Of a DNA stretch of 64,000 nt, positions 3,271-28,299 are shown one piece after another; the first letter of the stretch is position 1; each line of letters begins with the position of its first letter. Source of the stretch: an uncultured delta proteobacterium (GTDB lineage: Bacteria; Desulfobacterota; Binatia; Binatales; Binataceae). Made by a program: the position numbers and the translations under genes. The notes under the pieces are model-generated. The model made no database searches and was not told where the DNA came from. It saw only the letters and a list, made by a program, of their open reading frames with translations. The stretch is taken from positions 1,120,001 through 1,184,000 of the forward strand of contig CAWEEQ010000004.1 in the NCBI GenBank assembly GCA_963808235.1. The letters run 5' to 3'.

Positions 3271-3363
3271 TTTTGAGGTTTCCCCGGAGATGGTTGAAGC
3301 GCCTTCTTTCCTATGTTACGTTCGCATGCACGTGAATTTCGTCCCCCGTTCAGCTTAGTCCTC

Positions 3364-5185: not shown

Positions 5186-5233
5186 GCGTAATAGCAAAAT
5201 TGTCCGGATTAGTTATCGACGATTGATATCCAG

Positions 5234-6148: not shown

Positions 6149-6158
6149 CGCCGGTCCT

Positions 6159-7088: not shown

Positions 7089-7988
7089 TAATCCCGGCGT
7101 GGAACGGCGCGCGGACTCTTCCGCGCGCACTCGCGAGCGTCTTCGCCCAGTCATACACCGACTATGAAGTCGTGGTCGTCGATGACGGCTCGACCGACGA
7201 TACCCGAACCGTGCTCGCCGGCTACGGAGATCGAATCCGCATCGTCAGCCAGCCCAACCGCGGCGTCTCCAGCAGCGCGCAATGCCGGCGTCGGCGCGTC
7301 CAGCGGCGAGTACCTGGCCTTTCTCGACGACGACGACGAATGGATGCCCGAGCATCTTGCGCGATGCGTCCCGGTTCTCGATCAAGATTCGAATTGTGTG
7401 CTGGTCTACACCGCGGCGTTCAAAATCGATCTGGCCGGCCGCGCGATGCCCAATCAGGAGAGCCAGACCTGGGGCCTCGATTCGCCAACTCCCGCGCAGA
7501 TGTTCGAGCGTCCATGGAACGTTCCGCCGAGTCAGTTCATGGTGCGCCGCGCGACCTTCGCACGATGCGCCGGCTTTGACGAGCGCCTGAGCAACGGCCA
7601 GACCGAAGACATCTTCTTTCTGCTACGTGCGCGTGAGTACGGATATTTCCGATCCGTGCCCGAGGTTCTGGTGCGCAAGACCACGCGCCCGCATTATCCC
7701 AAGGCGCTCGAGCGCGAGCAGGGATGCGAGCTGTTCGTGCAAGCGGTCCGCGAGCGCTACGGCGCCGCGGCGATCGATCTGATCAGGGAATTCCGCCGCA
7801 ACCGTTTGAAGCTCATGATCCATATGGCCCACGTCCTGACTCAGGAGGGACGCCCCAAGGATGCGCGCCGATGTCTTGCCCGCGTCATTCACTATCAGCC
7901 CACCTCGCCGAAAGCCTATCGTCGATATCTGAAAACCTTCCTGCCGGCTCGAGCGCCGCGCCAAACTTCGCGCACAGACGAAGCTTGA
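7070..7988 (+). pseudogene. GT2 glycosyltransferase with a 1-nt insertion near 7268-7272 (pseudogene or sequencing error)
   Basis: VTVVIPAWN..VVDDGSTD in one frame and ARNAG..LAFLDDDD in another; the NRGxxxARNAG motif is split. Confidence 0.85.
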
Positions 7989-7998
7989 GCTTAACTTC

Positions 7999-8952
7999 AT
8001 GACTTCAGCGGCAGGACCAGGTTCGCAACCCGGCGATCGCTCGCCGCTCGTGTCCGTCATCATTCCGGTTTACAACGGCGCTGCCACGATCGGCCGCGCG
8101 CTTCAGAGCGTCTTCGCGCAAACCTTTACTGATTTCGAAATTATTTGCGTTGATGACGGCTCGACCGACAACACGGCGTCAGTCCTGGCCACCTTCGGAT
8201 ATAGAATCCGAATCGTCAGCCAGGCCAACCGCGGATTTCCCGGCGCCCGCAATGCCGGCGTCGCGGCGTCCCGCGGCGAGATGCTCGCGCTGATCGATCA
8301 CGACGACCAATGGGCGCCGGATAAGCTCGAGCTCTCCGTCGCGGCGCTCCAGGGTAATCCGGGCGCATCGCTCGTTTACTCGGATCTGGTAGTGGTCAAC
8401 GAAGCGGGTGAGGAGTCGCGGCCGTCACCGATTGAGTCCGACACCGCGCATGCGCCCTCGATGGACGAGATGCTCTCGCGGATCTGGCCGATCATGCCGA
8501 GCACTGTCGTGATGCGTCGTCCCGCCTTCGATCGCGCCGGTGGATTTGGCGAGGACCTGAAAGAAGACCTCGACTTCTGGCTGCGGATGCGAGAGCAGGG
8601 CGACTTCATCTACATCCCCGACAAGCTGATTCGGTTTACCTTCGGCCAGCTCTATCCAAAGGTTTTGAAGCGCGACATCGGTCCCCGGCAGATGATCGAT
8701 CTGGTCCGCGCCCGCTATGGCTCCCGCGCCGCCGGATGGGTACAAGATTTCATCCAGCACAAAGTCAGGATGATCGCCTACGCCGGCGTCGTCGAGATGA
8801 GCCGCGGCAACATGGTCGGCGCGCGCCGATGCTTCATGCAGGTGCTGCGCTACGATCGCCTTCACCTAAAGACTTACCTGCGCCTGGCTCGAACACTTCT
8901 CCCCGAGCGCGCCCGCCGCGCCCTAAGCGGCCGCGCCGCCCGCGGCGCATGA
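7999..8952 (+). CDS. GT2 glycosyltransferase with helical C-terminal domain
   Basis: VSVIIPVYN, VDDGSTD, ARNAG, DHDD, EDLDFWLR. Confidence 0.92.
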   Translation: MTSAAGPGSQPGDRSPLVSVIIPVYNGAATIGRALQSVFAQTFTDFEIICVDDGSTDNTASVLATFGYRIRIVSQANRGFPGARNAGVAASRGEMLALIDHDDQWAPDKLELSVAALQGNPGASLVYSDLVVVNEAGEESRPSPIESDTAHAPSMDEMLSRIWPIMPSTVVMRRPAFDRAGGFGEDLKEDLDFWLRMREQGDFIYIPDKLIRFTFGQLYPKVLKRDIGPRQMIDLVRARYGSRAAGWVQDFIQHKVRMIAYAGVVEMSRGNMVGARRCFMQVLRYDRLHLKTYLRLARTLLPERARRALSGRAARGA

Positions 8953-9000
8953 TCGGAACTAACAGTGGCAGAATCAGCAGTAGCACCTGCAGAAAAAATA

Positions 9001-9221
9001 GTGGCACGGGCGTCCCTGCCCGTGATGTCGATAGCGTCTTCGCAACCTTTACCCTCTACAAGATCATGTCGGCGCGCCCCGTGATAACCACGCGATTGTT
9101 CCCCTTCCCACATGGGAAGGGGTTAGGGGTTAGATTATCAAGGCTCAAGCAGCCCGTTCGCACTTCTCAAGCCCCCTCTTCCTTTTCCTATTCCCGTGGC
9201 ACGGGCGTCCCTGCCCGTGAT
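9001..9221 (+). repeat. Two identical 26-bp REP-like elements (9001-9026, 9196-9221) flanking a second palindrome type (9093-9133)
   Basis: GTGG-CACGGGC-GTCCCT-GCCCGTG-AT occurs twice: a tetranucleotide followed by a 7-bp stem. Confidence 0.8.
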
Positions 9222-9241
9222 TGAACTGAACCACTGAAAAA

Positions 9242-10465
9242 ATGCCCCGCGTCTCAGTAATCATCCCGGTCCACAACGGCGCCCGCACCGTCGCCGCCGC
9301 GCTCGACAGCGTACTCGCGCAGACCTTCACCGACTACGAGATCATCGCGATTGACAACAACTCAACCGACGCGAGCCGCGAGGTGCTCGCGCGCTACGCC
9401 GACAAGGTGAAAATCCTCGAGGAACCAAAACGCGGCCCCTCCGCGACTCGCAACACCGGCGTGCGCGCGTCGTCGGGCGAGTACCTCGCCTTCCTCGACG
9501 CCGACGATTGGTGGCGGCCCACGATACTCGAGCGCACGGTCGAAGTCCTCGACCGCGACCCCGAATGCGCGCTTGTGTACACCGATCTCGCGCTCGCCGA
9601 CAGCACCGGCCGCGAGCAGATGGCTTCGCTCGCCGGCAACAGCCATCCCCCGACCGTCGATGACATGCTCAAACAGTTATGGCCGATTCTACCCAGCGGA
9701 GTCCTGATGCGCCGGCGCGCGTTCGATCTCGCCGGCGGTTTTCCCGAGGATCTGATCGCATTCGAGGACGTCTACCTCTGGCTCCGCGCCCGCGAGCACG
9801 GAACCTTTCAGTATCTGCCCGAGCCGCTTGCAGTATGGCGCTTCGCACTATTTCCGGATCCCCTGAAACCCGCAGGAGGCCAGGACGAAGCAGGCATAAT
9901 CTTCGAGCAGATGGTCCGCGAGCGCTACCACACCGAAGCGCATCACCACGTGCTCGCTCGTCGACGCGCTCCCCGCAGCATCCTCGGCTACATCGGCCTC
10001 CGCGCCCTAAGAGAGGGCGATCGATCGTTAGCGCGTAGCAGTTTCGCCCGCGCAATCCGCATCGACCCACTAAGAATCAAAAACTATTTGCGATTCTCAA
10101 GAACTCTGCTGCCAGAGGCGATCGCGCGAGCCCTCAGCGGCCGCTCGCGCAGCGAGTCCGCCGCCGACGAGCGGCCATCGCGTCACCTTTGGCTATGGGG
10201 GCTATTGACACTGTTTATCTTCATTCTCGGTCAGCACTACTTAAGACCAACGGACTTTGGAGTCTTCAAGGACCTGTTTGCAATGGGGTTCGGACTGCTC
10301 TGCGCGATTCGCAACGAGGACGCGGCAAGGCAAGCCGCTCAACCAAATAAGTGGCTCGGGCGCAAAGATACTTCCGATAAGATTCCCCTGTACAGGTGGG
10401 CATACGCCGTTGGCGGCGTGTTTTTTGTGATTTTTGGAGTAGTCGATCTTTTCTTCAGGCTCTGA
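9242..10465 (+). CDS. GT2 glycosyltransferase with an extra C-terminal membrane region
   Basis: VSVIIPVHN, IDNNSTD, LAFLDADD, FEDVYLWLR; about 90-aa tail with three hydrophobic segments. Confidence 0.88.
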   Translation: MPRVSVIIPVHNGARTVAAALDSVLAQTFTDYEIIAIDNNSTDASREVLARYADKVKILEEPKRGPSATRNTGVRASSGEYLAFLDADDWWRPTILERTVEVLDRDPECALVYTDLALADSTGREQMASLAGNSHPPTVDDMLKQLWPILPSGVLMRRRAFDLAGGFPEDLIAFEDVYLWLRAREHGTFQYLPEPLAVWRFALFPDPLKPAGGQDEAGIIFEQMVRERYHTEAHHHVLARRRAPRSILGYIGLRALREGDRSLARSSFARAIRIDPLRIKNYLRFSRTLLPEAIARALSGRSRSESAADERPSRHLWLWGLLTLFIFILGQHYLRPTDFGVFKDLFAMGFGLLCAIRNEDAARQAAQPNKWLGRKDTSDKIPLYRWAYAVGGVFFVIFGVVDLFFRL

Positions 10466-12128: not shown

Positions 12129-13319
12129 TCAGACCTGAGTTTTCACCCACGACGACTCTGCCCGCGGGAGCGAGCGTACCGATCGCCATTCCATTTCCTT
12201 GGCCTCCGCTTCGACTTTGCCTTCGGCGATCCCCTTCTGATGAATTGCTTCAAGCCCGGCAACTTCCCGATCCACCGTCAGGACATACGGAGCCACCTGC
12301 TCGAATGCCTCTGGCGCGACGAAGATCGGCGCGCCTGCGCGCAATGCAAGCGAGATGGCGTCGCTCGGGCGCGCGTCAACCTCGGAGGTCCCGCCCCTGG
12401 CATCGATCCACATGGTTGCGATGAAGGTTTTCCCGCGGAGCCCGACCACCGCCACCTTCTCGATCTTCATCTCGCCGACCTCGAGCAATCGCGCGGTCAA
12501 ATCGAACGTCGTCGGCCTCACCACCGCGATGTTGGCAAGCAGCATCGCGATGATGTCCCCCTCGCCGGCTCCGACCCAGATGGGCAGGACCCGATTGCCC
12601 GAGCGCTCCTTCAGCAGGATGACTCTGGTGAAGCCGAGTTTGTAGTCTTTGCCATCAGCCAGCCATTTCGCTTCCTCGTTCTTGGGCGAGCGTGCCACGA
12701 CGTCGTCTACAGTTACTTCGATCATGGAATCTCCTCCTCTTCGTTCGCGATTCGGCGCGAGCCCGATTTCAGATTCGAGCACGATCCGTAGTCGCTCTCG
12801 CGCGCGATGAATACGAGCCTTGACCGTGCCGAGCGGCACTTCGATCAACACCGCGATCTCGCCCAGCTTGAGCCCTTCCACGTAGTGGAGACGGACGGCC
12901 TCCTGCATTTCCTTCGGTAGCGTGCCGACCGCGTCGGAGATCATACGGTGCAGCTCGCGGGCTTCCTGAACAAACTCCGCTGACGGCGCGGCGTCTTCGA
13001 GGCGGAAGCCGGCAATCGCGCGCCCACCATAGCGGTCGTCGAAGTATCCTTCGCGTCGGAGTCTGAGCCGCGTCCGGCATAGATTGATCACGATGCCAAG
13101 CAGCCATGGTTTGAAACGCTCCGGCGCGCGCAAGTCTTTGAGCGCGAGAAACGCACCGATGAGGGCGTCCTGTACAACATCCTCTGCATCTGCACGCATC
13201 ACCAGCCGCCGAGCAAAGGCGACCGCGCCCGCTCGATGGCGATCGATCAGGACTCCGAAGGCGGACTTATCGCCGGTCAGAACCCGCGCGATCAACTTGG
13301 CATCGTCATCAGCGACCAT
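12129..13319 (-). CDS. ECF sigma factor fused to a DUF151 (bifunctional DNase/RNase) domain
   Basis: Sigma2 (DAEDVVQD..FKPWLLGIVINLCR), sigma4 (EIA..VPLGTVKARIHRARERLR), then ILLKE..RVLPIWVG..RPTTFDL..DARPSDAISLAL. Confidence 0.88.
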   Translation of the reverse strand: MVADDDAKLIARVLTGDKSAFGVLIDRHRAGAVAFARRLVMRADAEDVVQDALIGAFLALKDLRAPERFKPWLLGIVINLCRTRLRLRREGYFDDRYGGRAIAGFRLEDAAPSAEFVQEARELHRMISDAVGTLPKEMQEAVRLHYVEGLKLGEIAVLIEVPLGTVKARIHRARERLRIVLESEIGLAPNRERRGGDSMIEVTVDDVVARSPKNEEAKWLADGKDYKLGFTRVILLKERSGNRVLPIWVGAGEGDIIAMLLANIAVVRPTTFDLTARLLEVGEMKIEKVAVVGLRGKTFIATMWIDARGGTSEVDARPSDAISLALRAGAPIFVAPEAFEQVAPYVLTVDREVAGLEAIHQKGIAEGKVEAEAKEMEWRSVRSLPRAESSWVKTQV

Positions 13320-13628: not shown

Positions 13629-14393
13629 ATGTCGAACCTACCGCTTACGCAGAATCAAATCGAAAAGAAGCTCACCGACGAGAACCTCGATGAGTTGTTG
13701 CACTTGTGGTGGGCTGAGCAGGGCGATGCCAAGCGCCGCGACTTGGAGTTGATCGCCTCAGCCATTCCCTTCTCTTCGAACGAAGGGTTGATTGTTCTCG
13801 ACTTGGGTTGCGGTCCCGGTGACGTCGGACGAGCTATTTGGTCGCGCTTCCCGCACTCACGCGTCGATTGCCTCGATCGCGACCTGTTTCTCATCTCGAT
13901 GTGTATCGGGCTGAACCGGCGCGAAGGCGTTCCGGGAAAGACCTTCGTACGCGACTTATCGAACAGCGACTGGTGCACTGGTCTGTCGCGGGATTACGAC
14001 GTAGTGGCAACCGCGAACGCGCTTCATTGGCTCGATGCTCGACGGGCAGGGGAGCTGTTCACGGAAGTCTTTCGAGCACTCCGTTCCGGCGGGGTATTTC
14101 TGTTCGTGGAGCCCGCCTGCGCGGAGAAGATATTCGCCCCGGGGTTTATCGAATGGAAGGCTAAGCAACCGGCCCGTTACGTTGCGGAGAATTGGGAACG
14201 ATTCTGGTCGCGGGCCAATGCCATCCTCGGCTACGATCATACGAAGCTGCTCGGCTCTCGCGATACGCCCCGGATCGGCGATGAGATGCCTGTCTCGGGC
14301 TGGATTCAACTTCTAAAGAACGCGGGTTTCGAATCGATCGACGTGCTTCTTCGCGATTCCGACGAGGTGATTCTGGCGGCCACAAAACGCTAG
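13629..14393 (+). CDS. Class I SAM-dependent methyltransferase
   Basis: GGAGG RBS; VLDLGCGPG, YDVVATANALHWL, LRSGGVFLFVE. Confidence 0.88.
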   Translation: MSNLPLTQNQIEKKLTDENLDELLHLWWAEQGDAKRRDLELIASAIPFSSNEGLIVLDLGCGPGDVGRAIWSRFPHSRVDCLDRDLFLISMCIGLNRREGVPGKTFVRDLSNSDWCTGLSRDYDVVATANALHWLDARRAGELFTEVFRALRSGGVFLFVEPACAEKIFAPGFIEWKAKQPARYVAENWERFWSRANAILGYDHTKLLGSRDTPRIGDEMPVSGWIQLLKNAGFESIDVLLRDSDEVILAATKR

Positions 14394-14550
14394 CCCTCGC
14401 CCACGAGGGCTAATCTTTCGACACGCCGAAAGCAAAAGACCGTCCGCGGGATTTTGCGATTGAATGGACACTGGGTGCAGGGGTCACCCCTGCCGCCCCG
14501 CGCGCAGCGGTCCTGAATCTCGACTTCTCTTCCGCTGAGCCGGCCCCGAA

Positions 14551-15781: not shown

Positions 15782-16414
15782 CTCCCCCTGTCCTATCCTT
15801 GACCTACAGTCGGTAACTTATGTCTACCTACAGATTGTAGGGTCTGGGATATATTCGAGTAGTGGTCGATATGTCAAGCAGCACGAGGCAGATTTTAGCC
15901 TCTCCGTTATCCAAATGCGAGCGACGTTGCGTTCTATCATCTCCTGTTCGGCGCGTCTCCGGAGTGACAGCGGCATCTGCGGCCGCCCAATTGTGCTCGC
16001 GTTGCACAGTTCGCCAGCCGGATCGAACGGCGCTGCAGGCAGATCCGGGAATCGCATAAGTGCTTGAATAATCGAATGTTTTGCGCGACGAGCCGGATCG
16101 AGGTGCAGCGGCCGATACAAAAAGTAGGAATTTTTTGTTATTCCGGAGATAGGATTCGGGCCGGTCGGGCTGTGCGATACGATCAGATGATCAGACATAT
16201 TAGTCGGCAAAGCACATTGAGCGTCAGGGGCCACAAAAGAATTAACCATCATCTGATAGCATCTTTAAAGGCCTTATTGAAAGCGCTCAAGACATTTTCT
16301 ACCGGGATTCAGCAATTTTTCAGCAAACTCGTGCCGAGACTTGCCGAGATTTATGATAAGTCAGGCGCCTGATTCGGATAAGCGTGGAAGGTCCAATCGA
16401 CGGAGGAACATTGG

Positions 16415-16795
16415 ATGAGAATCGTCACGATCGTCGCTCGTATTCTTTTGGGTTTGGTTTTCCTGATCTTCGGACTGAATGGATTTTTTCATTTCATGCC
16501 GAATCCGCCGCCGACGCCCGCAGCCGGCGCGTTTTTCGGCGCGCTCTTCGCGACCGGATACATGTTCGGGCTGATCTTCGGCGCCCAGGTAATCGGAGGG
16601 GCGTTGTTGCTGCTCGGCCTGATGGTTCCGTTCGCGCTGATGATACTCGCGCCGGTAATCGTGAACATCATCGCCTTTCACATTTTTCTGTCGCCGGTTC
16701 CAATGCAACTGGTGATCGCCTTCATCGTCACCGCGCTCTGGCTGATCCTGGCCTGGAACTATCGCGCCGCATTCGCGCCGCTGTTCAAAACATGA
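16415..16795 (+). CDS. DoxX-family membrane protein
   Basis: GGAGG RBS; ARILLGLVFLIFGLNGF; four TM segments; PVIVNIIAFH. Confidence 0.8.
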   Translation: MRIVTIVARILLGLVFLIFGLNGFFHFMPNPPPTPAAGAFFGALFATGYMFGLIFGAQVIGGALLLLGLMVPFALMILAPVIVNIIAFHIFLSPVPMQLVIAFIVTALWLILAWNYRAAFAPLFKT

Positions 16796-16845
16796 CGACT
16801 ATTTCCAATGCTTTGAATTCTCTGTAAGCATTGAAATCCTCGGGA

Positions 16846-16918
16846 GAGCCGTTAGCTCAGGTGGTAGAGCATGTGACTTTTAATCACAGGGTCCCGGGTT
16901 CAAGTCCCGGACGGCTCA
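16846..16918 (+). tRNA. tRNA-Lys (anticodon UUU), CCA not encoded
   Basis: Acceptor GAGCCGT/ACGGCTC; D-arm TAGCTCAGGTGGTAGAGC; anticodon arm TGTGA-CTTTTAA-TCACA; T-arm CCGGG-TTCAAGT-CCCGG. Confidence 0.96.
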
Positions 16919-16970
16919 CGAATTTCACACCACGGGGAGAACGACCAGGCGCACTTGAGACTCCGGCCGC

Positions 16971-18131
16971 CTACGCCGCCAGCCGCAGGCCCGCGACGAT
17001 CGTCCTGCGGATCGCGAACCAGCCCGGAACCAACGCGCTCAATACTCCCACCAACCACGCAAGACCGATCCCGAGCGGTATGATCGCTTTGCTCATCGGC
17101 AGCGGTACGTTCACGCCGGGGAGCGAGGGCGCATAACGCCCCAGTACCAGCCAGGTGATCAGGCCTCCGAGAATCCCGCCGGCGATCGCTACGAGCGAGG
17201 CTTCCGATACCAGATAGACCAGCACGCTACCCGGGCGAAATCCGATCGCCCGCATCACCGCGAGTTCGCGACCACGTTCTCGAATCGACATCGCCGCGGT
17301 GTTGGCCGCCACCAGGGTAACTACTCCTACGACGATCACGCCGAGGACCGCTGCCAGCGTGAAGATCGACGCGAGGCTGCTGAAGACGTTGCGCGTGAAT
17401 TGTCCTTCTGCGTCGGTCTTCGTCTGATGCTCGGAGTTTGAGAACGTCTCATCGATCGAAGCGATCACCGGGTCGATCGAAGAAAGGCTATCTGTCTCGG
17501 CCCAGATGAGCGTCACCAACCCGGGATTGCCTTTGAGAGATTCAAAGTAGTCGCGGCGGAACACCAACATGTTCAGGGGGCCGGTGGACGAGGGTCCCGG
17601 ATGCAATTCGCCTACAATCCGCACCGGGACGTCGAGGGTCGGGAGCGTACCGCGCACGATGATCTGCTGGCCGAGATGCCATCGGTGACGACGCATCAGG
17701 TCGGGGCCGACCAGCGCCGCCGTCCTTTGATGTTCGAATGCTGCCGCCGCGGAGCTTGAGACGCCCCATTCCGGCCAAAGTTCGTGCATGTCGACTGGAT
17801 CGACTGCATAGCTGAGAAACTGATCCGAGGCGCCGGCGAACTGAGAGGGCATAAATTCCCACGCCTGCACGACCTTGACGTGCGGCAGCACGGAAATCTT
17901 CCGTGTGTAGGACTCAGGCAGCCAGTACGTCATCCCCGCGGCGTTGCTGCAGACCAGCCGGCGCGAGCCCGCACTGCCGCGCATCAGGAGCGCGGGAATC
18001 TCCGCGATGCTCGCAAGGCCGCAGAACATGAAGATCGAGATTGCGATCGAGAGGGCGGTAAGGATATTGCGTCGGCGATTGCGGCGCAGGTTTCTCCAGA
18101 TGAGCCAAATGAATTTCACGATTGCCGCCAC
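16971..18131 (-). CDS. MacB/FtsX-family ABC transporter permease (orphan)
   Basis: WRNLRRNRRRNILTALSIAI, a large periplasmic domain, NTAAMSIRERGRELAVMRAIGF, three C-terminal TMs. Confidence 0.88.
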   Translation of the reverse strand: MAAIVKFIWLIWRNLRRNRRRNILTALSIAISIFMFCGLASIAEIPALLMRGSAGSRRLVCSNAAGMTYWLPESYTRKISVLPHVKVVQAWEFMPSQFAGASDQFLSYAVDPVDMHELWPEWGVSSSAAAAFEHQRTAALVGPDLMRRHRWHLGQQIIVRGTLPTLDVPVRIVGELHPGPSSTGPLNMLVFRRDYFESLKGNPGLVTLIWAETDSLSSIDPVIASIDETFSNSEHQTKTDAEGQFTRNVFSSLASIFTLAAVLGVIVVGVVTLVAANTAAMSIRERGRELAVMRAIGFRPGSVLVYLVSEASLVAIAGGILGGLITWLVLGRYAPSLPGVNVPLPMSKAIIPLGIGLAWLVGVLSALVPGWFAIRRTIVAGLRLAA

Positions 18132-18261
18132 TGGATCATGGGATCATGGCGACCCCAGGGACAAGAGGCAGCTGCGTGCGCGCTCCGCAAGGACGAAAAA
18201 TTTTCTTTCGCTCCGCTGCTACGCATATCGTTTCGGATTCCGAAGGCACATAATCGCCGAC

Positions 18262-18795
18262 ATGGACGACGACCAGCTGAATATTCTTCTCGAAAAGGTG
18301 GCCACAGCTTGGCACGATGTAATGGCGCTCTACGGTCACGCGATGCTCAGTGCGCAAGTTCTCGAAGGCGAGCTAGTTTGGGTATTGGGGGCTCTGCGAA
18401 CAAAAATCGGCGAACTCAAGGACAACGATTTCGATTGGGCGTATGAACAAATGCGGCGGGCCAAACCGCTTGATCTGTTGAATTTGATTCGAGGAAGTGG
18501 AGGCAATCTTTCGGCGGATAATCTGGAAGTCATCTGCAAGGCTATTCGCGCAAGAAATTTTCTCGCCCACAGATTCTTTCATCAATACAGTCCCATAACG
18601 GGCGTGCTGAAAAGTCGGCAGTGCGCTACAAAGCTCCGAAAGATCAAGTCAGAACTCGAGGCTGCCCACAGCCTCCTCCTACCCCTTCGACTGAAACTGG
18701 AAGGAGAGCTTGGCCACTCAGAGGAACTAAAGGCGATTGATGACGACTTTTGGAAACGAGCCACACAAGCGATTCTGTCGTTTGACGAGGAGTAG
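18262..18795 (+). CDS. Hypothetical helical protein with an RxxxxH (HEPN-like) motif
   Basis: G.AM..AQVLE helix followed by IRARNFLAHRFF; visibly AT-richer than flanking core genes. Confidence 0.65.
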   Translation: MDDDQLNILLEKVATAWHDVMALYGHAMLSAQVLEGELVWVLGALRTKIGELKDNDFDWAYEQMRRAKPLDLLNLIRGSGGNLSADNLEVICKAIRARNFLAHRFFHQYSPITGVLKSRQCATKLRKIKSELEAAHSLLLPLRLKLEGELGHSEELKAIDDDFWKRATQAILSFDEE

Positions 18796-18995
18796 AGGTC
18801 GGTACCCTGGCACGCGAATCGCTTAAATGAACGCCCGATCATCGCCAAGCCTCTGCAACCCTGTGACTAAAGGTCACAGAATGGGGGCTTTGTGCTGACT
18901 TTGGCGGCTCCTGCGGGCGAAGACGCACCACCGCACCGCGCCCAAAAGCGACCGAGTACTTGAGTGTCAAACTTTCGTGCCTATGATCTTGAAAT

Positions 18996-20186
18996 ATGAG
19001 ATTCGGTGGAAACCCTAGCGCTGATGATGTCCTGGACCTGGTGAAGAACGCCGTCCATGAAGACCGAGAGCTCGATTATAAGCAAACCCTCCCCGGCAAC
19101 TCTCCAGACTCCCATCGCGATTTTCTCTACGACGCCGCATCGCTGGCGAACGCGGCGGGCGGTCTGCTCATATTCGGAGTTCGTGAACGCCGAGATGACG
19201 CGGGCAAGCCGACCGGCGAGCCGGAAGCGGCCCCGGGGTTGGCGGGTTTCAACCAAGACGCGGCTATTCAGCGGCTGGAATCGATGTTGCGCGATGGGAT
19301 TGAACCGAGGCTCCCTGGCGTGAGGGCGCACGTCGTTTCGGGACTAAGCGACGGACCAGCGCTCGTGTTCGCAATTCCCAGGAGCTGGGCGGGGCCGCAT
19401 ATGGTTAAGTATGGCGGCATGGCTCGATTCTATACCCGTAATAATCGCGGCAACGAACCAATGAATTACCAGCAGATAAGGGACGCATTCGCAGCGTCGT
19501 TGGACGTGATCGAAAAAGCGCGCAACTTCCGCGGTAAGCGGATCCGTCAAATTGAATACGGAGGGCGTCTTCCAACAGCTCTTCAAGGCTCTGCGCGCTC
19601 GGTCCTTCACTTGATTCCGCTGTCAACGATTGGCCAAGCCGACGCCGTCGACTTACCCCGTCCACGCCGGGAAATCGGCCTAATGCCTCCTCCAGGCTGG
19701 AGAGAGGCACGCTCAATGGGCGAAAGAATGAACTTTGATGGGTATGCGCGAACCGACGAGAGGGTTTCGTATGTACAGCTTTTCAGATCCGGCGCTCTCG
19801 AGGCGGTTGATTCGCACCTGCTGAACTTTGCGCCCATGCCCAACAAGATTCCCTGGCCGACTCTGGGGAAAGAGTTAATAGAGCAATCCCGACGTTATTT
19901 GAAGTGTCTAGACGCCTTAGGGTGCGATCCGCCGCTCGCCATCGCAGTGAGTTTGATCAATGTGCAAAATTTCTCGATCGGGCGGGATGGCGGACCTTCC
20001 TTCCCTCCTACGCGAGAGCTCGATCTTCGCATTCTTTCGATACCCGAGGTGGTAATCGAGAGTCTCGAAGTTGATGTGCCACGCGTAATGCAGCCGATCT
20101 TCGATATCTTGTGGCAATCCTGCGGACGTGATCGTTGCGACAACTACGATCCGGCCGGCAATTGCAACATTGTGCTCGAAGACTAA
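18996..20186 (+). CDS. Schlafen/AlbA_2-domain protein with an uncharacterised C-terminal domain
   Basis: EDRELDYK, AASLANAAGGLLIFGV, IEPRL, PHMV..RFYTR. Confidence 0.85.
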   Translation: MRFGGNPSADDVLDLVKNAVHEDRELDYKQTLPGNSPDSHRDFLYDAASLANAAGGLLIFGVRERRDDAGKPTGEPEAAPGLAGFNQDAAIQRLESMLRDGIEPRLPGVRAHVVSGLSDGPALVFAIPRSWAGPHMVKYGGMARFYTRNNRGNEPMNYQQIRDAFAASLDVIEKARNFRGKRIRQIEYGGRLPTALQGSARSVLHLIPLSTIGQADAVDLPRPRREIGLMPPPGWREARSMGERMNFDGYARTDERVSYVQLFRSGALEAVDSHLLNFAPMPNKIPWPTLGKELIEQSRRYLKCLDALGCDPPLAIAVSLINVQNFSIGRDGGPSFPPTRELDLRILSIPEVVIESLEVDVPRVMQPIFDILWQSCGRDRCDNYDPAGNCNIVLED

Positions 20187-20319
20187 CGGCCCAAATGAAT
20201 CGGAGGAAGCGTCGTAAGCAGATAAACTACTACGGCCACCATTACTTCGAGGGCGACGCAGTGCGGGCGCTCGCGCCGAAGTCCCGGACGGCTCATGCAC
20301 TCCTTGCCCGAAAATTTCC

Positions 20320-20844
20320 GTGAAGATTGATACATCGCGGCTGAGCGTCGTGATGACGGAGCATCCGGGCGAGCTTATGGATCCGGCGGCAGTGATGCGC
20401 GTCTTCAACAGCAATCCGGATTTTATTGATGACTCCGAAGGGCGGGTCGGGAAGTTTGCGTATGCGCTCGACGAAGTGGCGGGGTGGGCGATGTTCCGGG
20501 AGCCGGTCAGAGAGCATCAGCGGTACTTTGCGATTCGGCCGCTCGGCAGCGATGAGTTGATTGGGATGGGCGATATGCTGACGCCGCATCCGAGCGGCAA
20601 CTGGGCGGCGCTGGGCCTGCTGATATTGCATCGCGAATGGCAGGGCCGCGGGCTGGGCCGCGAGGCTGCCGAGGCGATCGAAGCGATGCTCGCGGCGGAG
20701 CGATGGCCCGAAGTGGAACTGGTGGTGCTGCAAGTGCGGCCGCGCTCGCGTCGCTTCTGGGAGAGTTGTGGGTATCGGTATTTCCGGGATTCGGCCAATG
20801 AGACGAATCAACCGGTCTGGGTGCTCCGCAAGCCGCTCGGCTGA
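20320..20844 (+). CDS. GNAT N-acetyltransferase
   Basis: LGLLILHREWQGRGLGR, RRFWESCGY. Confidence 0.85.
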   Translation: MKIDTSRLSVVMTEHPGELMDPAAVMRVFNSNPDFIDDSEGRVGKFAYALDEVAGWAMFREPVREHQRYFAIRPLGSDELIGMGDMLTPHPSGNWAALGLLILHREWQGRGLGREAAEAIEAMLAAERWPEVELVVLQVRPRSRRFWESCGYRYFRDSANETNQPVWVLRKPLG

Positions 20845-20905
20845 TACGGTCCTAAGTCGCCGATTCAGATCGCATTTTTTAGGAGACCGCTTTAAGATTC
20901 GGCGC

Positions 20906-22204
20906 ATGCGCCGAACAGCCCGAATCGCGTTTATGTCGGTTGCGGCGATGTTGGCCGCAGGATGGGTCGAGGCGTACGCGCAGACTGGCGCGGCGGCTTC
21001 GCCGATCGCATCGCCAGGCCCCGCCGCGGCGGAGACACTGAAGCCCGGTACGATCGTTGGCGCGGACAACGCCGAACAATACGCGCGCTATCTTCCAGCC
21101 GCCGGCAAGTTTGCTATCGCGCATGGGTTCCGGATGCGGATCACGCCCGAGCGCCGGATCGAGTGGTCCGCGGGCTTCCGGCACGCGACCGAAAAATACT
21201 CGCCCCAAGTCACGCTCGACAGCGACGACTACATCAAGAATTACATAGCCGGGATGCCTTTTCCGCTGGTCGATCCAACCGATCCGAAAGCCGCGGTCAA
21301 AGTCGCTTACAACTGGCACATGGGACCGTTCATGCCCGACGATTTCTCGCTCGCACCATGGAGCAGCAACGGTTACGCGCCCGATCCCGCCAACCCAAAT
21401 CGAATCGTTCCGAAAAGCGACAAGGATTATGTCTGCGAGCAGTTTGAATTTCTCCGCTACGCGCATCGCACCGACGTCGATCCGCGCCCGACCATGGGCG
21501 ACAACGCGAACGGCTTCGAATGGAAGGCGAGATGCAATCGATGGGAAAGCGATCTGTCCGACAATCAGACCGGCGAAGGCGCGGGAATCTGGATCCGCTA
21601 CCTGGACCCGAAGCGTCCCGACGAATTTTTCGCTTTCATTGAGGCCACCCGCCGGGTCCGCCGGCTCGCGGTGAACCTCGACTATCCCAATGAATTCTGC
21701 CGCGGATGTCATCAGCCGTTCTGGGCCTATGCGTTGCCCAAGACCGAGAAGTATTTGTACCGCCTGCTCGGCACCACGACCCTGCTCGCATGTCTTGCGG
21801 CGGACGACGAACCGGCCGGATTCAAGAACGGGGCGAACGGGATGGTGCTCAGCGAGGAACCCTTCGAGCTTCGACACGCATACATTATCGAGATGAGACC
21901 GCGATTTCCCGACGCGACCTCGCAGGGCCTGAGGACCATCGTCTATGTGGACAGCGAAGTGTACGTATGGCTGGCGGCTGAGTTTTATGAATCGAGCGGG
22001 CTGACTGCGACTGCGATGCCGCTATGGCGGATGCGTCCGGCGGCCGAAGGCGGAAACCTGTTCGATCTTGCCGGCAGCTTCTACCGTCCCGAGCGCGACG
22101 GTTCATATTTCCGCTCGCTGATCCCGGCGCACAATGAATTCAAGCAGATAATAAACAGCGGCGACGTGTCGGAAAGCGCGTTCAATCCCCAGATGATGCA
22201 TTGA
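20906..22204 (+). CDS. DUF1329-like exported protein
   Basis: Signal peptide; PGTIV..DN, YIAGMPFP..DP.DPKAAVKVAYN, RRVRRL. Confidence 0.72.
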   Translation: MRRTARIAFMSVAAMLAAGWVEAYAQTGAAASPIASPGPAAAETLKPGTIVGADNAEQYARYLPAAGKFAIAHGFRMRITPERRIEWSAGFRHATEKYSPQVTLDSDDYIKNYIAGMPFPLVDPTDPKAAVKVAYNWHMGPFMPDDFSLAPWSSNGYAPDPANPNRIVPKSDKDYVCEQFEFLRYAHRTDVDPRPTMGDNANGFEWKARCNRWESDLSDNQTGEGAGIWIRYLDPKRPDEFFAFIEATRRVRRLAVNLDYPNEFCRGCHQPFWAYALPKTEKYLYRLLGTTTLLACLAADDEPAGFKNGANGMVLSEEPFELRHAYIIEMRPRFPDATSQGLRTIVYVDSEVYVWLAAEFYESSGLTATAMPLWRMRPAAEGGNLFDLAGSFYRPERDGSYFRSLIPAHNEFKQIINSGDVSESAFNPQMMH

Positions 22205-22636: not shown

Positions 22637-23359
22637 TGCCAGGAATCTCCAACATTCAGGTGAAAAGTGAAAATAAGTGAGCAAGGACCAAGCCGCGGGA
22701 TAACTTCAGGTGGCGATTTGTTCTCTAGCGTACATTTCCATAGCTAAAGCCGAATACCGGCGTCAAAAATGCCTGCGCTAAATCGGCCGCGACTTGTGTC
22801 GATTACGAGAAACCGTCGTTCCAATACGCATCGGCGGAGCACCGCAACTCGTCCCGACCGAAGCACGGGAAGTCGAATGCCTCGGCGCGCGGGCGAGGGA
22901 CACTCGGAAAATGTTCGAATCTGACTATAGAGTTCCCTTTGAGAAGTGTGAAGCGGGTAAAAACTTCCTTCACATTTTACCGACGCCCATGGAATTCTCG
23001 GCGCGTTTTCAGACGCCACGGCTGATAATCGCTCACTTATCAGAATCAACGATCAATTTTATGCATTGGCGCGTATTTTGCGTCTTGCGGACCACAATGG
23101 TTCTGCGCGTAACGGACTGGGGAGACCGTACAGACAGTTGAAGCCTGAATACGCTCAATCGCCGACGCTAAGCTATTCCTTTCACACCCCCGCCTCTTTG
23201 TACTCGTGGGCTGCGATCGCCGACGACAAGAAGTGCCCAATCTGCGGCATCCGGCATGACGCGCCCAGGGTATCGCTCCCGGCAAAGCAGTCTATCGGCT
23301 CCCCATCCAACCCAAGCCATTGATTCGCCGCGACCGCTCTTTTTGTGGAGGGAAAAATC

Positions 23360-26300
23360 GTGGATTCTGACGAAACCACTCGTGAACCCGTGGCGCCCAA
23401 GCGCAGCCGCTCCCGCAACGGCAATGGTGTCGAAGCTGCGGGCCCAGCGGAACATCCCGCGCCTGCCGTCGAAGGCGATGGCCGCCCAGCTCGCAACGGG
23501 AAGAATGGCGCCGGCGCCCGCAGCCTCGACCAATCGCATCTGAACAAGCTTCTCAGCGCGATGTCAGCGGCCGGCGATGGCGATTTCACGGTGCGGCTGC
23601 CGGTCGGCGCCGACGACGGAATCCTCGGCAAGCTGGCCGAAAAGTTCAACGAAGTAGTCGAGCGCAACGAGGCGATGGCGCGTGAGATCACGCGCGTCGA
23701 GCAAGCAGTCCGGCACGAAGGCTTGATGACGGAGCGCGCGACGTTGCATGGCGCCAACGGCGGATGGCGTCTGATTTTAAGTTCGATCAACTCGCTGATC
23801 GGCGGCCTGGTGCAGCCGACCACCGAGGTTGCCCGCGTTATCAGCGCGGTTGCCGAAGGCGACTTGAGCCAGAAGATGGCGCTCGAGATCGATGGGCAAC
23901 CGGTAAAGGGCGAGTTCCTGCGGATTGGGACCACGGTTAACGTCATGGTCGATCAGCTGAACTCATTCGCATCAGAAGTTACCCGCGTGGCGCGCGAAGT
24001 CGGCACGGAAGGAAAACTCGGCGGCCAGGCCGACGTCAAGGGCGTTTCGGGAGTCTGGAAGGATCTAACCGACAACGTCAACGTGCTGGCCGGCAACCTG
24101 ACCGACCAGGTGCGAAATATCGCGAAGGTCACGACCGCAGTCGCGAACGGAGACCTCTCGCAGAAGATCACGGTCGATGTAAAAGGCGAAATCCTCGAGC
24201 TGAAAATCACTATCAACACGATGGTGGATCAGCTCCGCTCCTTCGGCGCGGAAGTTACCCGGGTGGCGCGCGAAGTCGGCACCGAAGGGAAGCTCGGCGG
24301 CCAGGCCGACGTGCGCGGCGTTTCGGGGGTCTGGAAGGACCTGACCGACAACGTCAATCTGATGGCCTCCAACCTGACCACCCAGGTCCGCGGCATCGTG
24401 AAAGTTATCACGGCGGTTGCCAACGGCGACCTGTCACCGAAATTGGAAGTGTCGGCCAAGGGCGAGGTCGCGGCTCTGGCCGATACGCTCAACGGGATGA
24501 CCAAGACGCTCGCGATCTTCGCCGAGCAGGTTACCGACGTGGCGCGCACGGTCGGCGTGGAAGGAAAGCTGGGTGCGCAAGCAGAGGTTCCGGGGGTCGC
24601 AGGAACCTGGAAGGACTTGACCGACAACGTCAACGTGCTCGCGCGCAACCTGACCGACCAGGTGCGAAATATCGCGGAAGTTACGACCGCAGTCGCCAAT
24701 GGCGACCTGTCGAAGAAGATCATCGTCGATGCGAAGGGCGAGGTGCTCGAGCTGAAGAGCACGATCAACGCGATGGTCGATCAGCTTAGCTCGTTCGCCG
24801 ATGAAGTCACCCGCGTGGCAAAGGAAGTCGGCACCGACGGCAAGCTTGGCGGCCAGGCGCAGGTCCGGGGCGCATCGGGAACCTGGAAGGACTTGACCGA
24901 CAACGTTAACGTGCTGGCGCGCAACCTGACCGACCAGGTGCGAAATATCGCGGAAGTTACGACCGCGGTCGCCAAAGGCGATCTGTCCAGGAAGATCTCG
25001 GTCGACGCGCGCGGCGAGGTGCTGGAGCTGAAAAACACCATGAACGTCATGGTGGATCAGCTCAATTCGTTCGGCGCGGAAGTTACCCGCGTGGCGCGCG
25101 AAGTCGGCACGGAAGGAAAGCTCGGCGGCCAGGCGGAAGTGCAGGGCGTGTCAGGGACCTGGAAAGACTTGACCGACAACGTTAACTCGATGGCGTCGAA
25201 CCTCACGACCCAGGTCCGAAATATCGCGCAGGTTACGACCGCGGTCGCGAGCGGCGACCTGTCGAAGAAGATCACGGTCGATGTCAAAGGGGAGATCCTC
25301 GAGCTGAAGAACACGATCAATACGATGGTGGATCAGCTCAATTCGTTCGCCTCGGAAGTTACCCGCGTGGCGCGCGAGGTCGGCACCGAAGGACGCCTCG
25401 GCGGCCAGGCGGAAGTGCGCGGCGTTTCGGGGGTCTGGAAGGACCTCACCGACAACGTCAACTTCATGGCGAGAAACCTTACCACCCAGGTCCGCGGGAT
25501 CGTCAAAGTCGTGACCGCGGTCGCCAACGGAGAACTGAAACAAAAGCTGGTCGTCGAAGCGGCGGGCGAGGTCGCCGCGCTGGCCGAGACGATCAACAAC
25601 ATGACCGACACGCTGAGCACCTTTGCCGAGCAGGTCAGCACGGTGGCTCGCGAGGTCGGCGTGGAAGGAAAACTGGGCGGCCAGGCGCGAGTGCCCGGCG
25701 TCGCAGGAACGTGGAAGGATCTGACCGACAACGTCAATTTCATGGCCTCGAACCTGACCACCCAGGTCCGGGGAATCGTCAAGGTCGTGACCGCGGTTGC
25801 CAATGGCGACCTGAAACAGAAGCTGGTCGGAGTGGAAGCCAAGGGCGAGATCGCGGCCCTGGCCGACACGATCAACAGCATGACGGACACGCTCGGAATC
25901 TTCGCCGACCAGGTCACCACGGTGGCGCGCGAAGTCGGAATCGAAGGGAAGCTCGGCGGACAGGCGAAGGTGCCTGGCGCGGCCGGCACGTGGCGCGACT
26001 TGACCGACAACGTCAATCAGCTCGCAGGAAACCTGACTGCCCAGGTCCGGGCGATCTCCGACGTGTCGACCGCAGTTACCAAGGGCGACCTGACCCGATC
26101 GATTCGGGTCGAGGCGGCGGGCGAAGTCGCCGCGCTGTCGGACAATATCAACCAGATGATCGTCAATCTGCGCGAGACGACGCAGAAAAACACCGAGCAG
26201 GACTGGCTCAAGACCAACCTGGCGCGGTTCTCCAGTATGATGAGCGGCCAGAAAAACCTGGAGTCGGTGTCGCGAATGATCATGTCGGAACTGACCCCGC

Positions 26301-28183
26301 TGGTGTCGGCGCATCATGGCGCATTTTTCCTGATGGACACCGACGACGACGAAGAAGTCCTGAAGCTGACCAACACTTACGCCTATCGGCAGCGCAAGGG
26401 AGTCTCAAACCGATTCGCGCTCGGCGAGGGTCTGGTCGGCCAGTGCGCGCTCGAGAAGAAGAGCATCCTGGTGAGCGGCGCGCCGGGCGACTACATCCAA
26501 ATCAGCTCGGGTCTCGGCGAGGCGCCGCCGGTCAACATCATCGTGCTGCCGATCCTGTTTGAGGGAGAGGTCAAGGCGGTAATCGAGCTGGCGTCGTTCA
26601 ATCCGTTCAGCGCGATCCATCAGATTTTCCTCGACCAGCTGAGCGAGAGTATCGGCGTCGTGCTGAACATGATCATGGCCAATATGCGCACCGAGCAACT
26701 GCTGCAGCAGTCGCAAGGCCTGACCCAGGAACTGCAGAATCAGTCGAACGAGCTGACTTCGCAACAGGACGCGTTGAAGCAGACCAACAACGCACTGGAA
26801 CGGCAGGCGCTCGAACTGGAAGAGAAAGCAAAACTGCTCGAGGAACAGAACGCCAAGGTCGAGGTCAAGAACCGCGAAGTCGAGCAGGCGCGCAAATCGT
26901 TGGAGGAAAAGGCCGAGCAGCTCGCGCTGGTATCCAAGTACAAGTCGGAATTCCTTGCCAACATGTCGCATGAGCTGCGCACGCCTTTGAACAGCCTGCT
27001 GCTTCTTTCCAAGGTGCTTTCCGAGAACAAGGAAACCAACTTGAGCGAGAAGCAGATGGAGTACATCCGCACCATCTACAGTTCCGGCACCGATCTGATG
27101 AAGCTCATCAACGAGGTTCTCGATCTGTCGAAGGTCGAAGCCGGAAAGATGGAGCTGGAGCCGCGCGATCTTCCTGCCTCGGATATTATCGACTTCGTCC
27201 GGCGGAGCTTTGGGCCCCTGGCGGAGCAGAAGAACCTGAAATTCAGCGTCGAGATGGCGGCCGGAGTTCCAGAAGAAATCCGCACCGATCAGCAGCGCCT
27301 CGAACAGGTCCTCAAGAACCTGCTCGCCAACGCGTTCAAATTCACCGAGGAAGGTTCGGTGCGATTCCGCGTCGAGATGGCGCCGCCGACCAAGTACTTC
27401 GAGAGCGAATCGTTGAAGATCGCGGGCAAGGTGATCGCGATGTCGGTGACCGATACCGGCATCGGGATTGCGCGCAACAAACACCGGCTGATCTTCGAAG
27501 CCTTCCAGCAGGCGGACGGCAGCACCAGCCGCAAATACGGCGGCACCGGACTCGGACTTTCGATAAGCCGCGAAATCGCGCAGGCGCTGGGCGGCGAGAT
27601 CCAGGTCCAGAGCGACTTGGGCGAGGGCAGCACGTTTACGCTGTACCTGCCGATCAGATATCAGGCGGCCGCAGGAGTGCCGGCGCGTCGCGATACCGAG
27701 TTGGACTATCCGTCGAAATCGCAGGCGCTGAGCGAAAGTTTGCGGACCGGCTCTGCGACGGTGGCCGAACTGCAAAAGGCCGACTACTCACTCACCGGCA
27801 AAACGGTTCTGATCGTGGACGACGATCCGCGCAACATTTTCGCGATCACCAGCCTGCTCGAAGGCGAGGGCATGAAGGTGCTGTCGGCGGAAAATGGCCG
27901 CGCCGGAATCGACATGATCGAGCAGCATCCGGACATCGACATCGTGCTGATGGACATCATGATGCCCGACATGGACGGCTACGAGACCATGAAGATCATC
28001 AGGAGCGATCCGAAGAAGCGATACCTGCCGGTGATCGCGGTGACTGCCAAGGCGCTCAAGGCCGATCGCGAACGCTGCATGACGGCGGGAGCTTCGGACT
28101 ACCTGTCGAAGCCGGTCGACGAGTCGCAGTTGGTTGATTTAATCGGAATCTGGGCCAGTGGCGCGCGGCCGCAGTCGGTATAG
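23360..28183 (+). CDS. Cytoplasmic poly-HAMP hybrid histidine kinase (HAMP array-GAF-HisKA-HATPase-REC)
   Basis: Eight W(K/R)DLTDNVN repeats; [46 protein letters not shown] start follows GGAGGG. Confidence 0.95.
23930..26040 (+). repeat. About 276-bp intragenic tandem repeats encoding the poly-HAMP array
   Basis: Recurrent ACCGACAACGT(C/T)AA at about 276-bp intervals. Confidence 0.9.
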
Positions 28184-28299
28184 GCAATAGCTATAGCCAG
28201 TAGCTATATGTTCCTGCGCACATGCGACGCCGCAGAAGGCATTCGGAAGAGCAGACGAGGCGCGGACCGGTGAAGGTAGTAAGTTCACTAGCAACGCGA

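Follow-up and report, generated by a model that had tools for sequence, protein, structure and literature searches.

A putative decayed tRNA-Lys islet in a Binataceae genome, with a prokaryotic Schlafen and a HEPN-like protein as separate defence candidates

The DNA analysed here, referred to as the window, comprises 64,000 nucleotides from an uncultured delta proteobacterium of the Binataceae (assembly GCA_963808235.1, contig CAWEEQ010000004.1, positions 1,120,001 to 1,184,000), and its coordinates are counted from its first letter. Directly after a tRNA-Lys gene, it contains a segment of about 3.4 kb bounded by two copies of the 3'-end of that tRNA, in which a two-domain prokaryotic Schlafen protein (pSlfn) of 396 aa (18996..20186, + strand) and a HEPN-like protein of 177 aa (18262..18795, + strand) are encoded side by side. 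We lean towards reading this segment as a decayed, integrase-less tRNA-Lys islet that holds the two genes as independent single-gene defence candidates and not as a two-gene system. As a decayed tRNA island the islet would in itself be ordinary, and the two genes do not appear to form a new two-component system. The locus offers a natural example of a catalogued pSlfn8-type Schlafen, a class without experimental precedent in the survey that defines it (Perez Taboada et al. 2026, Nat Microbiol, PMC13056530). It also draws attention to an unnamed family of ~170 aa with an E...RNxLAH signature, present in integron cassettes and defence islands, which is a candidate for a new stand-alone HEPN RNase. 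What is observed are the repeat, the domains with their motifs and folds, the gene contexts and the lack of co-occurrence; nuclease activity, its targets and triggers, and the integration history are what we infer from sequence.

The 396-aa protein had been assigned to the Schlafen/AlbA_2 group in a first-pass annotation of this DNA, and the assignment is borne out by a family profile, by the catalytic motif and by fold comparison. Its nuclease domain (residues 22-157; 19059..19466, + strand) matches the Pfam family SLFN_AlbA_2 (PF04326) with 37.1 bits against a cut-off of 25.3 and an E-value of 5.1e-9, and bears the residues E22-x4-D27-x-K29 together with E64, the motif of the window copy being E22-DREL-D27-Y-K29. 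Among 51 aligned pSlfn sequences, E22, D/E27 and K29 are present in all 51 and E/D64 in 50. The best profile match in the PDB is CbCash (PDB identifier 9ylu) with an E-value of 5.4e-9, followed by the N-domain of SLFN13 (PDB identifier 5yd0, an entry labelled Schlafen 8) with an E-value of 1.1e-4. In this SLFN13 domain, the ES..IEFK segment is the counterpart of E22, D27 and K29, and the second Asp of GVDD that of E64. An AlphaFold2 (AF2) model derived from the 51-member alignment has a pLDDT of 92.3, and a Foldseek search of the PDB with this model found 18 matches at E-values of 1e-3 or below, all to the N-terminal domain only. The top matches are DIP2311 (PDB identifier 3lmm), the tRNase of SAMD9 (PDB identifier 9o0d), SLFN13 (PDB identifier 5yd0), SLFN11 (PDB identifier 7zep) and SLFN14, and SLFN5 is also matched. 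The E-values of SAMD9 tRNase, SLFN13, SLFN11, SLFN14 and DIP2311 range from 2e-5 to 8e-4, and the Foldseek probability is 1.00 for 9o0d, 5yd0, 7zep and 3lmm. In BFVD, Schlafen-like proteins of poxviruses and giant viruses match the pSlfn, and no match was found in the phage collection. The full-length family, with members of ~390-400 aa, extends over many bacterial and archaeal phyla; at least 137 proteins belong to it at an E-value of 1e-3 or below among 8000 candidates scored, 385 genomic relatives were confirmed, and metagenomic relatives at 87% identity exist.

The C-terminal α/β domain of the pSlfn (residues 176-390; 19521..20165, + strand) has no match in Pfam, the PDB or BFVD, and its 30 nearest Atlas clusters are unnamed and share no Pfam family. 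A word-based search with this domain retrieved just 10 proteins, all of which are Schlafen fusions or truncated forms. In tblastn searches of plasmids, followed by BLASTP comparison, residues 176-389 matched a TIR_2 protein of Bacillus cereus plasmid pAH820_272 (29% identity over 218 aa, E-value 9e-23), and the domain also matched a Mrr_cat restriction-nuclease protein of Natronomonas with an E-value of 4e-13. In both proteins, the shared domain comes after the effector domain. The TIR_2 fusion lies at 4491-5657 of its locus (L003) and is followed by a SMEK-domain gene, and the Mrr_cat fusion lies at 284-1444 of a locus (L004) on a Natronomonas marina plasmid. By these sequence matches, the domain is a portable module that serves three putative effectors, viz., Schlafen, TIR_2 and Mrr_cat. 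An exchange of effectors on a constant domain is what would be expected of a sensor or regulatory module, and such a role is therefore presumed for it.

The survey of prokaryotic Schlafens, in which an Ex4(E/D)xK signature is reported for 5,930 proteins (PMC13056530), provides a class for this architecture. Its supplement file 21 assigns two plasmid homologues of the window protein, which are ~30% identical to it over 93% of the length, to 'pSlfn.TBP-like', group pSlfn8; this group counts 89 members, with a defence score of 0.82. Two further homologues each make up a singleton cluster of the 'unannotated fusion' type there. As the table does not contain the window protein, its class is assigned via these homologues. 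We regard the identity of the protein as a prokaryotic Schlafen as solid, and its architecture as pSlfn8-like (TBP-like). Like the members of this class, it combines an N-terminal PF04326 nuclease domain with the Ex4(E/D)xK motif and a C-terminal non-nuclease domain in one polypeptide; relatives occur in defence-island and restriction-modification (R-M) neighbourhoods, whereas the window copy lies in a tRNA islet and not in an R-M operon. The CRISPR-associated Schlafen Cash (PDB identifier 9ylu; described in PMC13462974), the closest PDB sequence match to the nuclease domain, is a tRNA-cleaving prokaryotic Schlafen, but it is fused to a Csx15 sensor and activated by the cA4 of type III CRISPR systems, and neither such a domain nor a CRISPR locus is present here. 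Side by side on Oceanithermus profundus plasmid pOCEPR01 (L090, 3962-5182 and 5342-6559), we note two tandem Schlafen-fusion paralogues that fall into different singleton clusters in PMC13056530. A second AlbA_2 gene is also found near the first in another locus (L083, 4846-6009).

The defence-type role that the first-pass annotation attributed to the Schlafen family finds support in genomic context and in published work. Context was examined in the 80 best genomic loci, each taken with at most 10 kb of flanking sequence to either side. Co-oriented R-M genes occur within 4 kb of the pSlfn gene in 18 of the 80 loci, which is a lower bound since 4 kb of sequence is available on both sides in 46 loci only. 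Fifteen of these are type I systems (L008, L010-L012, L018, L021, L025, L028, L034, L062, L066-L068, L076, L077), in which the order is mostly hsdM-hsdS-pSlfn-hsdR, and three are MmeI-like (L014, L023, L080). A tRNA gene is present within 5 kb in 8 of the 80 loci and within 1.3 kb in 3, and a copy on a Ralstonia megaplasmid is accompanied by phospholipase D, helicase and SIR2 genes. As for published work, two pSlfns are reported to protect Escherichia coli from phages, and RorSlfn5 and EcoSlfn7 are examples that were tested. One of the two protective proteins, RorSlfn5, cleaves tRNAs in the anticodon arm, and fragments of tRNA-Lys(UUU) are the most abundant (PMC13056530).

The position of pSlfn genes in R-M operons recalls that of PrrC, a restriction-linked tRNA-Lys nuclease that is embedded in the EcoprrI hsdMSR operon (bioRxiv 10.1101/2024.01.29.577857; PMC1484252). 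The pSlfn relatives occupy a similar slot in type I operons in 15 of the 80 loci, mostly between hsdS and hsdR. PrrC and RloC, however, consist of an ABC-ATPase and a HEPN nuclease, and thus differ in fold and chemistry from the metal-dependent Schlafen nuclease; moreover, the window pSlfn has no R-M genes nearby. The shared slot suggests, by analogy with PrrC, that R-M-embedded pSlfns could be back-up tRNases guarded by the restriction enzyme, and it is by this analogy only that the restriction enzyme would silence them. We therefore offer the hypothesis that the C-terminal domain is a sensor, which may monitor restriction enzymes. In the mechanism that we propose, the N-terminal metal-dependent Ex4(D/E)xK tRNase is probably kept inactive by the C-terminal domain, which would respond to a phage cue or to the condition of a partner system. 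Once activated, the protein would cleave the anticodon arm of tRNAs and bring translation to a stop. The gene, with its own promoter, would move as a single-gene unit.

The 177-aa protein, which the first-pass annotation had called HEPN-like, is characterized by an RNFLAH motif (R98-H103) and by E35 on its first helix, and it is predicted to be all-α. A word-based search found three relatives only, whereas an exhaustive search gave 99 representatives (at 50% identity) with E-values of 1e-3 or below, 12 of them at 1e-10 or below. Most members are 150-210 aa long, and the nearest are metagenomic sequences with 91% and 89% identity. In a 70-sequence alignment, which comprises 66 sequences at 19-44% identity to the window protein and three closer ones at 54-91%, the best conserved positions are G25 (64 sequences), Q32 (67), E35 (69), R98 (69), N99 (67), L101 (67), H103 (69) and F106 (68), giving a family signature of an AQxLE helix followed by RNxLAHxFF. 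According to Anantharaman et al. 2013 (PMC3710099), HEPN domains have an Rx4-6H motif with a polar residue after the Arg, and a conserved acidic residue. The present family conforms to this rule, and the usual Ex3[KR] form of the acidic motif was not seen in it. Weak profile similarities point in the same direction. The HepT-like (DUF86) profile is matched by 7 of 95 members with E-values of 8e-4 to 4e-3 and scores of 17-19.6 bits, below the cut-off of 23.5, and always over profile positions 54-101, i.e., the motif-bearing part. In a separate Pfam scan of the 70 members, HepT-like was matched by six, DUF4145 by three and HEPN_Apea by one, all weakly. Below the PADLOC thresholds, Cas13-ApeA, Csm6 and CARF_HEPN account for 7 member-matches (E-values 9e-5 to 2e-3) among 11 families matched. 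The Atlas look-alikes of the protein are unnamed clusters, the nearest named ones being MtlR (0.83) and DUF4145 (0.81), which we treat as leads only.

Homodimer prediction with the 70-row alignment gave an ipSAE of 0.71, and the highest-scoring of three controls had 0.00. Of 30 proteins with structures solved as same-chain pairs, 20 attain this mark, as does 1 of 23 single-chain proteins, a rough guide since a custom alignment was used here. Contact agreement between the runs is at least 56% and the pLDDT of the partner at least 74. Residues 18-36 and 102-107 make up the predicted symmetric interface; they coincide with the conserved positions, and the motif is placed at the interface, an arrangement that is known from dimers of HEPN RNases. 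The protein would act as a symmetric homodimer whose two RNxLAH motifs come together in a metal-independent endoRNase site, comparable to those of HepT and other HEPN toxins. It resembles HepT (DUF86) and the small HEPN toxins in being small and all-α, in its R-N-x3-H motif with an acidic residue on helix 1, and in the predicted two-fold dimer. Unlike them, it lies next to no gene for MNT or another antitoxin, its scores with the Pfam HEPN models are all under the gathering thresholds, and its AF2 model has an extra C-terminal helical hairpin at residues 115-176. From sequence, the protein probably represents a new family-level branch of the HEPN RNases.

The window HEPN-like protein itself had no tblastn match in plasmids, and distant family members were used as queries instead; no match to a family member was found in phage genomes. 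On plasmids, members of the family occur as single genes in surroundings rich in defence functions. For example, on Vibrio alginolyticus plasmid NZ_CP054704.1 (locus L085, 67044-75505), the member is a single cassette of an integron-type array with DUF3265 pseudo-ORFs between the cassettes, among neighbours that code for an Abi protein, a cytidine deaminase, RelE/RelB, an HTH and PIN pair, and a restriction endonuclease. Other members on plasmids are located right after qatD, after a pair of ATPase and RloB genes, between transposases, and near HEPN and GIY-YIG proteins.

The first-pass annotation, which overall is borne out in part, had paired the two proteins as a candidate cassette, with the reservation that they need not be one system. 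The reservation now appears to be the better reading, and the pairing is not sustained by the co-occurrence of homologues or by the closest relative compared. A profile built from the 70 HEPN-like sequences, which recovers the window gene at an E-value of 1.7e-44, found no match in any of the 80 pSlfn loci. Likewise, among 12 plasmid loci, five with a member of the HEPN-like family have no Schlafen and seven with a Schlafen have no member of the HEPN-like family. The two window genes are separated by a gap of 200 nt (18796-18995), which contains a promoter-like site, TTGAGT-16-TATGAT (18960..18987, + strand). This is the only promoter-like match in 16700-20500, in a scan for terminators and promoters whose counts did not exceed those in shuffled sequences. 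The closest relative compared, locus L005 of another metagenome-assembled genome, encodes a pSlfn with 89% amino acid identity and shares with the window only the positions 18956-20184, at 84% nucleotide identity. This homology begins ~40 nt 5' of the start codon, within the promoter-like site, and ends at the stop codon. It thus covers the gene and ~40 nt only, which argues that the pSlfn travels as a unit of gene and promoter and that its pairing with the HEPN-like gene is local. The neighbours in L005 encode ThiF-type E1, Prok-E2_E and SduA_C proteins, and no HEPN-like gene is among them. From the sequence comparisons, the HEPN-like protein and the pSlfn are most likely separate defence modules of one gene each, which lie together in a decayed islet. 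We also observe that the surroundings in L005 look like a defence island, the pSlfn lying between the ThiF-type E1 and Prok-E2_E pair (6304-8400) and a Shedu SduA_C-domain gene (14003-14458).

The limits of the islet are set by a tRNA gene and a repeat, in agreement with what had been noticed in the first-pass annotation. ARAGORN identified a single tRNA gene in the window, an intact tRNA-Lys with the anticodon TTT (UUU in the tRNA; 16846..16919, + strand), which Rfam family RF00005 matches at 16846-16918 with 71.3 bits and an E-value of 1.1e-14, and which is the presumed target of integration. Its 3'-terminal 17 nt up to the discriminator base, AAGTCCCGGACGGCTCA, form the first copy of a direct repeat (16902..16918, + strand; attL-like core) and recur exactly at 20279..20295 (+ strand; attR-like remnant), 24 nt before the start codon of a GNAT acetyltransferase gene (20320-20844; Acetyltransf_1, E-value 4e-10). 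These are the only two exact occurrences in the 64 kb, and no further match appears when up to two mismatches are allowed, for which the chance expectation is 0.03. Two or more matches occurred in none of 100 dinucleotide shuffles, and the identity breaks off at either edge of the 17-mer. Direct repeats of a tRNA 3'-end are the classic scar of tRNA-targeted site-specific integration. Between the copies lie three ORFs, a number that agrees with the first-pass annotation, viz., 16971-18131 (- strand), 18262-18795 (+ strand) and 18996-20186 (+ strand). Pfam families of integrases, recombinases and transposases were not found in 56 of the 65 non-overlapping ORFs of the window, the islet genes included; the other nine, outside the scan, comprise seven that are 89-246 aa in length and two long ones (23345-28183 and 28222-30255) that we judged by eye to be sensor kinases.

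The first of the three genes directly follows the tRNA and encodes a complete permease of the FtsX/MacB type of ABC transporters (386 aa; 16971..18131, - strand), which matches FtsX (PF02687) with 52.2 bits against a cut-off of 25.5 and an E-value of 7.8e-14. Its match to MacB_PCD (E-value 2.6e-5) is just under the cut-off, and weak NCBIfam similarities to ADOP, LolCE and MacB are seen. It is an orphan with respect to an ATPase, as no ABC_tran match was found among the scanned ORFs of the window and none is adjacent. A PADLOC match of the permease to CARF_LolE_TM was read as plain similarity of transmembrane domains. In codon composition, the three genes differ. Relative to the 38 other genes of the 41 considered in the window, in which the GC content at third codon positions (GC3) is 0.731 with a standard deviation of 0.044, the permease gene is host-like (0.765, z +0.8), whereas the value of the HEPN-like gene (0.556, z -4.0) is below that of every other gene of the 41, and that of the pSlfn gene (0.615, z -2.7) ranks third from the bottom. 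A dip is also seen in the GC profile, and the second copy of the 17-mer coincides with the boundary between foreign and native composition. Thus, two genes of the islet are compositionally foreign, the permease is native-looking, and the islet appears to be a mosaic. That it lacks an integrase, is small and includes a native-looking permease suggests a remnant, decayed or mosaic, and not an intact element. We suggest that the islet at the 3'-end of tRNA-Lys(UUU) would be a decayed island. The displaced last 17 nt of the tRNA would still show where its distal edge lies, and a host-like orphan ABC permease would stand in it with two foreign genes acquired independently. Integrase-less islands flanked by att sites are known as cis-mobilisable elements (CIMEs). 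The present islet resembles them in being bounded by a direct repeat of a tRNA 3'-end and in having no recombination genes of its own, and differs from them in that one of its three genes looks native.

Several observations weigh against the reading of the two proteins as defence RNases. The Schlafen/AlbA_2 protein might be a housekeeping or regulatory nucleic-acid binder and not a defence nuclease. Its relatives are named by PGAP only as 'ATP-binding protein' or 'AlbA family DNA-binding domain-containing protein'; 30.4% of pSlfn genes have no defence neighbour and the pSlfn8 architecture is outside the seven systems assayed, both according to PMC13056530; some of the 80 loci have housekeeping neighbours, such as Memo/AMMECR1 and MgsA in L051; and the window pSlfn itself adjoins no known defence gene except the HEPN-like candidate. 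This is nevertheless improbable in our view, given that the acidic catalytic triad and the lysine are retained in 50-51 of the 51 sequences, that the C-terminal domain is also fused to TIR and Mrr nucleases, that 18 of the 80 loci have the gene within an R-M operon, and that its patchy spread over bacteria and archaea comes with signs of recent transfer. The HEPN identity of the 177-aa protein, put forward in the first-pass annotation, is probable: motif conservation, sub-threshold profiles and the predicted dimer speak for it, while a confident fold and a curated family match are lacking. The protein has no match at threshold in Pfam, PADLOC or NCBIfam. Its AF2 model, made with a 4-sequence alignment, is all-α but poor (pLDDT 63.6), and a Foldseek search of the PDB with this poor model found nothing at an E-value of 1e-3 or below, the best hits being generic helical bundles (E-value 0.23). 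The 70-sequence profile had no meaningful match among PDB sequences, the best being a designed coiled coil (E-value 0.038). The dimer score may reflect likeness to solved HEPN dimers and not binding by this copy, and no antitoxin is visible by the gene, so that a stand-alone active RNase would need some other control. The protein could hence be a non-catalytic helical regulator that binds RNA or protein, or an anti-defence or immunity protein, with an R-N-x3-H-like motif. Some HEPN families, for example MtlR, are described as non-catalytic (PMC3710099), and MtlR is the nearest named Atlas cluster, if as a lead only. We regard this alternative as unlikely, though with some claim to attention, because the Arg, Asn, His and helix-1 Glu are retained in 67-69 of the 70 sequences in a pattern typical of catalytic sites and the conserved residues form the predicted two-fold interface, whereas non-catalytic HEPN families tend to lose the motif (PMC3710099).

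Other observations bear on the independence of the two genes and on the origin of the islet. That the HEPN-like protein and the Schlafen form one two-gene RNase system, be it as sensor and effector, as toxin and regulator or as co-activated effectors, would agree with the two genes being adjacent, co-oriented, foreign in composition and of RNase type. Moreover, the pair might be specific to a lineage and recur in the immediate relatives, as metagenomes contain HEPN-like proteins with 91% and 89% identity and a pSlfn at 87%, the co-occurrence sample being the 80 genomic and the 12 plasmid loci. One of these HEPN-like sequences (P0001) and one pSlfn relative (P0018) come from contigs of similar length (3842 and 3843), which may be a hint of such a pair. 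We give such a system little credence, since none of the 80 pSlfn loci and none of the 12 plasmid loci has both genes, the 89%-identical pSlfn of L005 has no HEPN-like gene and its homology to the window stops 40 nt upstream of the start codon, the promoter-like site in the 200-nt gap lies inside the transferred block, and both families occur elsewhere as single genes. Turning to the islet, integration of the segment between the repeats is deduced solely from the repeat. Neither an empty site nor a related island with an integrase was seen, the genome scan having been aimed at co-occurrence, and L005, the one locus of the 80 that was compared, showed no synteny with the window flanks. A host-like permease within the repeats fits a single foreign element poorly, which speaks for a mosaic or an old history. 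It might even be that no element was ever integrated, the permease being native, the foreign genes having entered a variable spot by other means, such as illegitimate or homologous recombination, and the repeat being an unrelated by-product or relic. The host-like GC3 of the permease gene (z +0.8), the lack of an integrase among the scanned ORFs, the evident mobility of the pSlfn as a bare unit of gene and promoter, and a second tRNA-Lys-derived fragment, an inverted anticodon arm at 18858-18878 that hints at a history more tangled than one integration, would all be compatible with this. We consider it quite unlikely, in view of a 17-mer that is exact, in direct orientation and ends precisely at the discriminator base, as in a classic integration scar, whose recurrence is not expected by chance, and whose second copy lies exactly at the boundary of foreign and native composition, 24 nt from the GNAT gene. 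A decayed islet with two separately acquired defence candidates therefore remains the reading that we prefer.

The inverted fragment (18858..18878, - strand) is a copy, identical in 19 of 21 positions, of the anticodon stem-loop of the tRNA-Lys and the four bases that follow it (16872-16892 of the window). It is located in the 200-nt spacer, 63 nt past the stop codon of the HEPN-like gene, and a second match at up to three mismatches was found in none of 100 shuffles of the window. By minimum free energy folding, it forms a hairpin on either strand, with a stem identical to that of the tRNA. In the loop of the minus strand, TTT is kept and positions 33 and 38 differ. The 7-nt loop of the sense strand, CUAAAGG as read from the sequence, is complementary to 6 of the 7 bases of the anticodon loop, keeps C32, U33 and a purine at 37, and displays AAA. 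The fold of the whole 200-nt spacer has no unusual stability (z -1.3 for the + strand and -0.7 for the - strand). Rfam detected only the tRNA in 16000-21000 and nothing at 18858-18878, and its matches to sR14 (E-value 0.033) and Plastid-ycf2 (E-value 0.23), far under their gathering scores, were taken as chance. No extension of the copy into a tRNA pseudogene was found by eye or by Rfam. The anticodon-arm pattern is absent from all 89 fetched loci, and the copy lies upstream of the sequence that L005 has in common with the window. Some integrases cross over at the anticodon loop, and the inverted copy may be debris of an older recombination at the same tRNA. It is a very remote prospect, raised by sequence likeness, that the copy functions as a cis-encoded decoy, as a type III-like RNA antitoxin or as a kissing-loop sensor of tRNA-Lys integrity for a flanking tRNase-type protein. 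As tRNA-Lys(UUU) is a favoured substrate of PrrC, of AriB of PARIS and of RorSlfn5 (PMC13056530), the idea of a substrate mimic or an antisense element next to two tRNase-type genes deserves a test; if true, a defence RNase would be carrying a mimic of its own substrate.

Elsewhere in the window, we note a gene (12129-13319, - strand) for an ECF-type sigma factor (Sigma70 r2 and r4) fused to a C-terminal bifunctional-nuclease domain (BFN_dom, E-value 3.7e-29), which is an unusual architecture. The longer of the two putative sensor kinases (23345-28183, + strand) has 1612 aa and, from its translation by eye, consists largely of ~90-aa repeats with a histidine-kinase- and receiver-like end; it is followed by a hybrid kinase of 677 aa (28222-30255, + strand), likewise recognized by eye. 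Three consecutive sulfotransferase genes (3313-4113, 4199-5185 and 6096-7088), followed by three genes of family-2 glycosyltransferases (7164-10465), probably make the region 3313-10465 a sulfated-polysaccharide locus.

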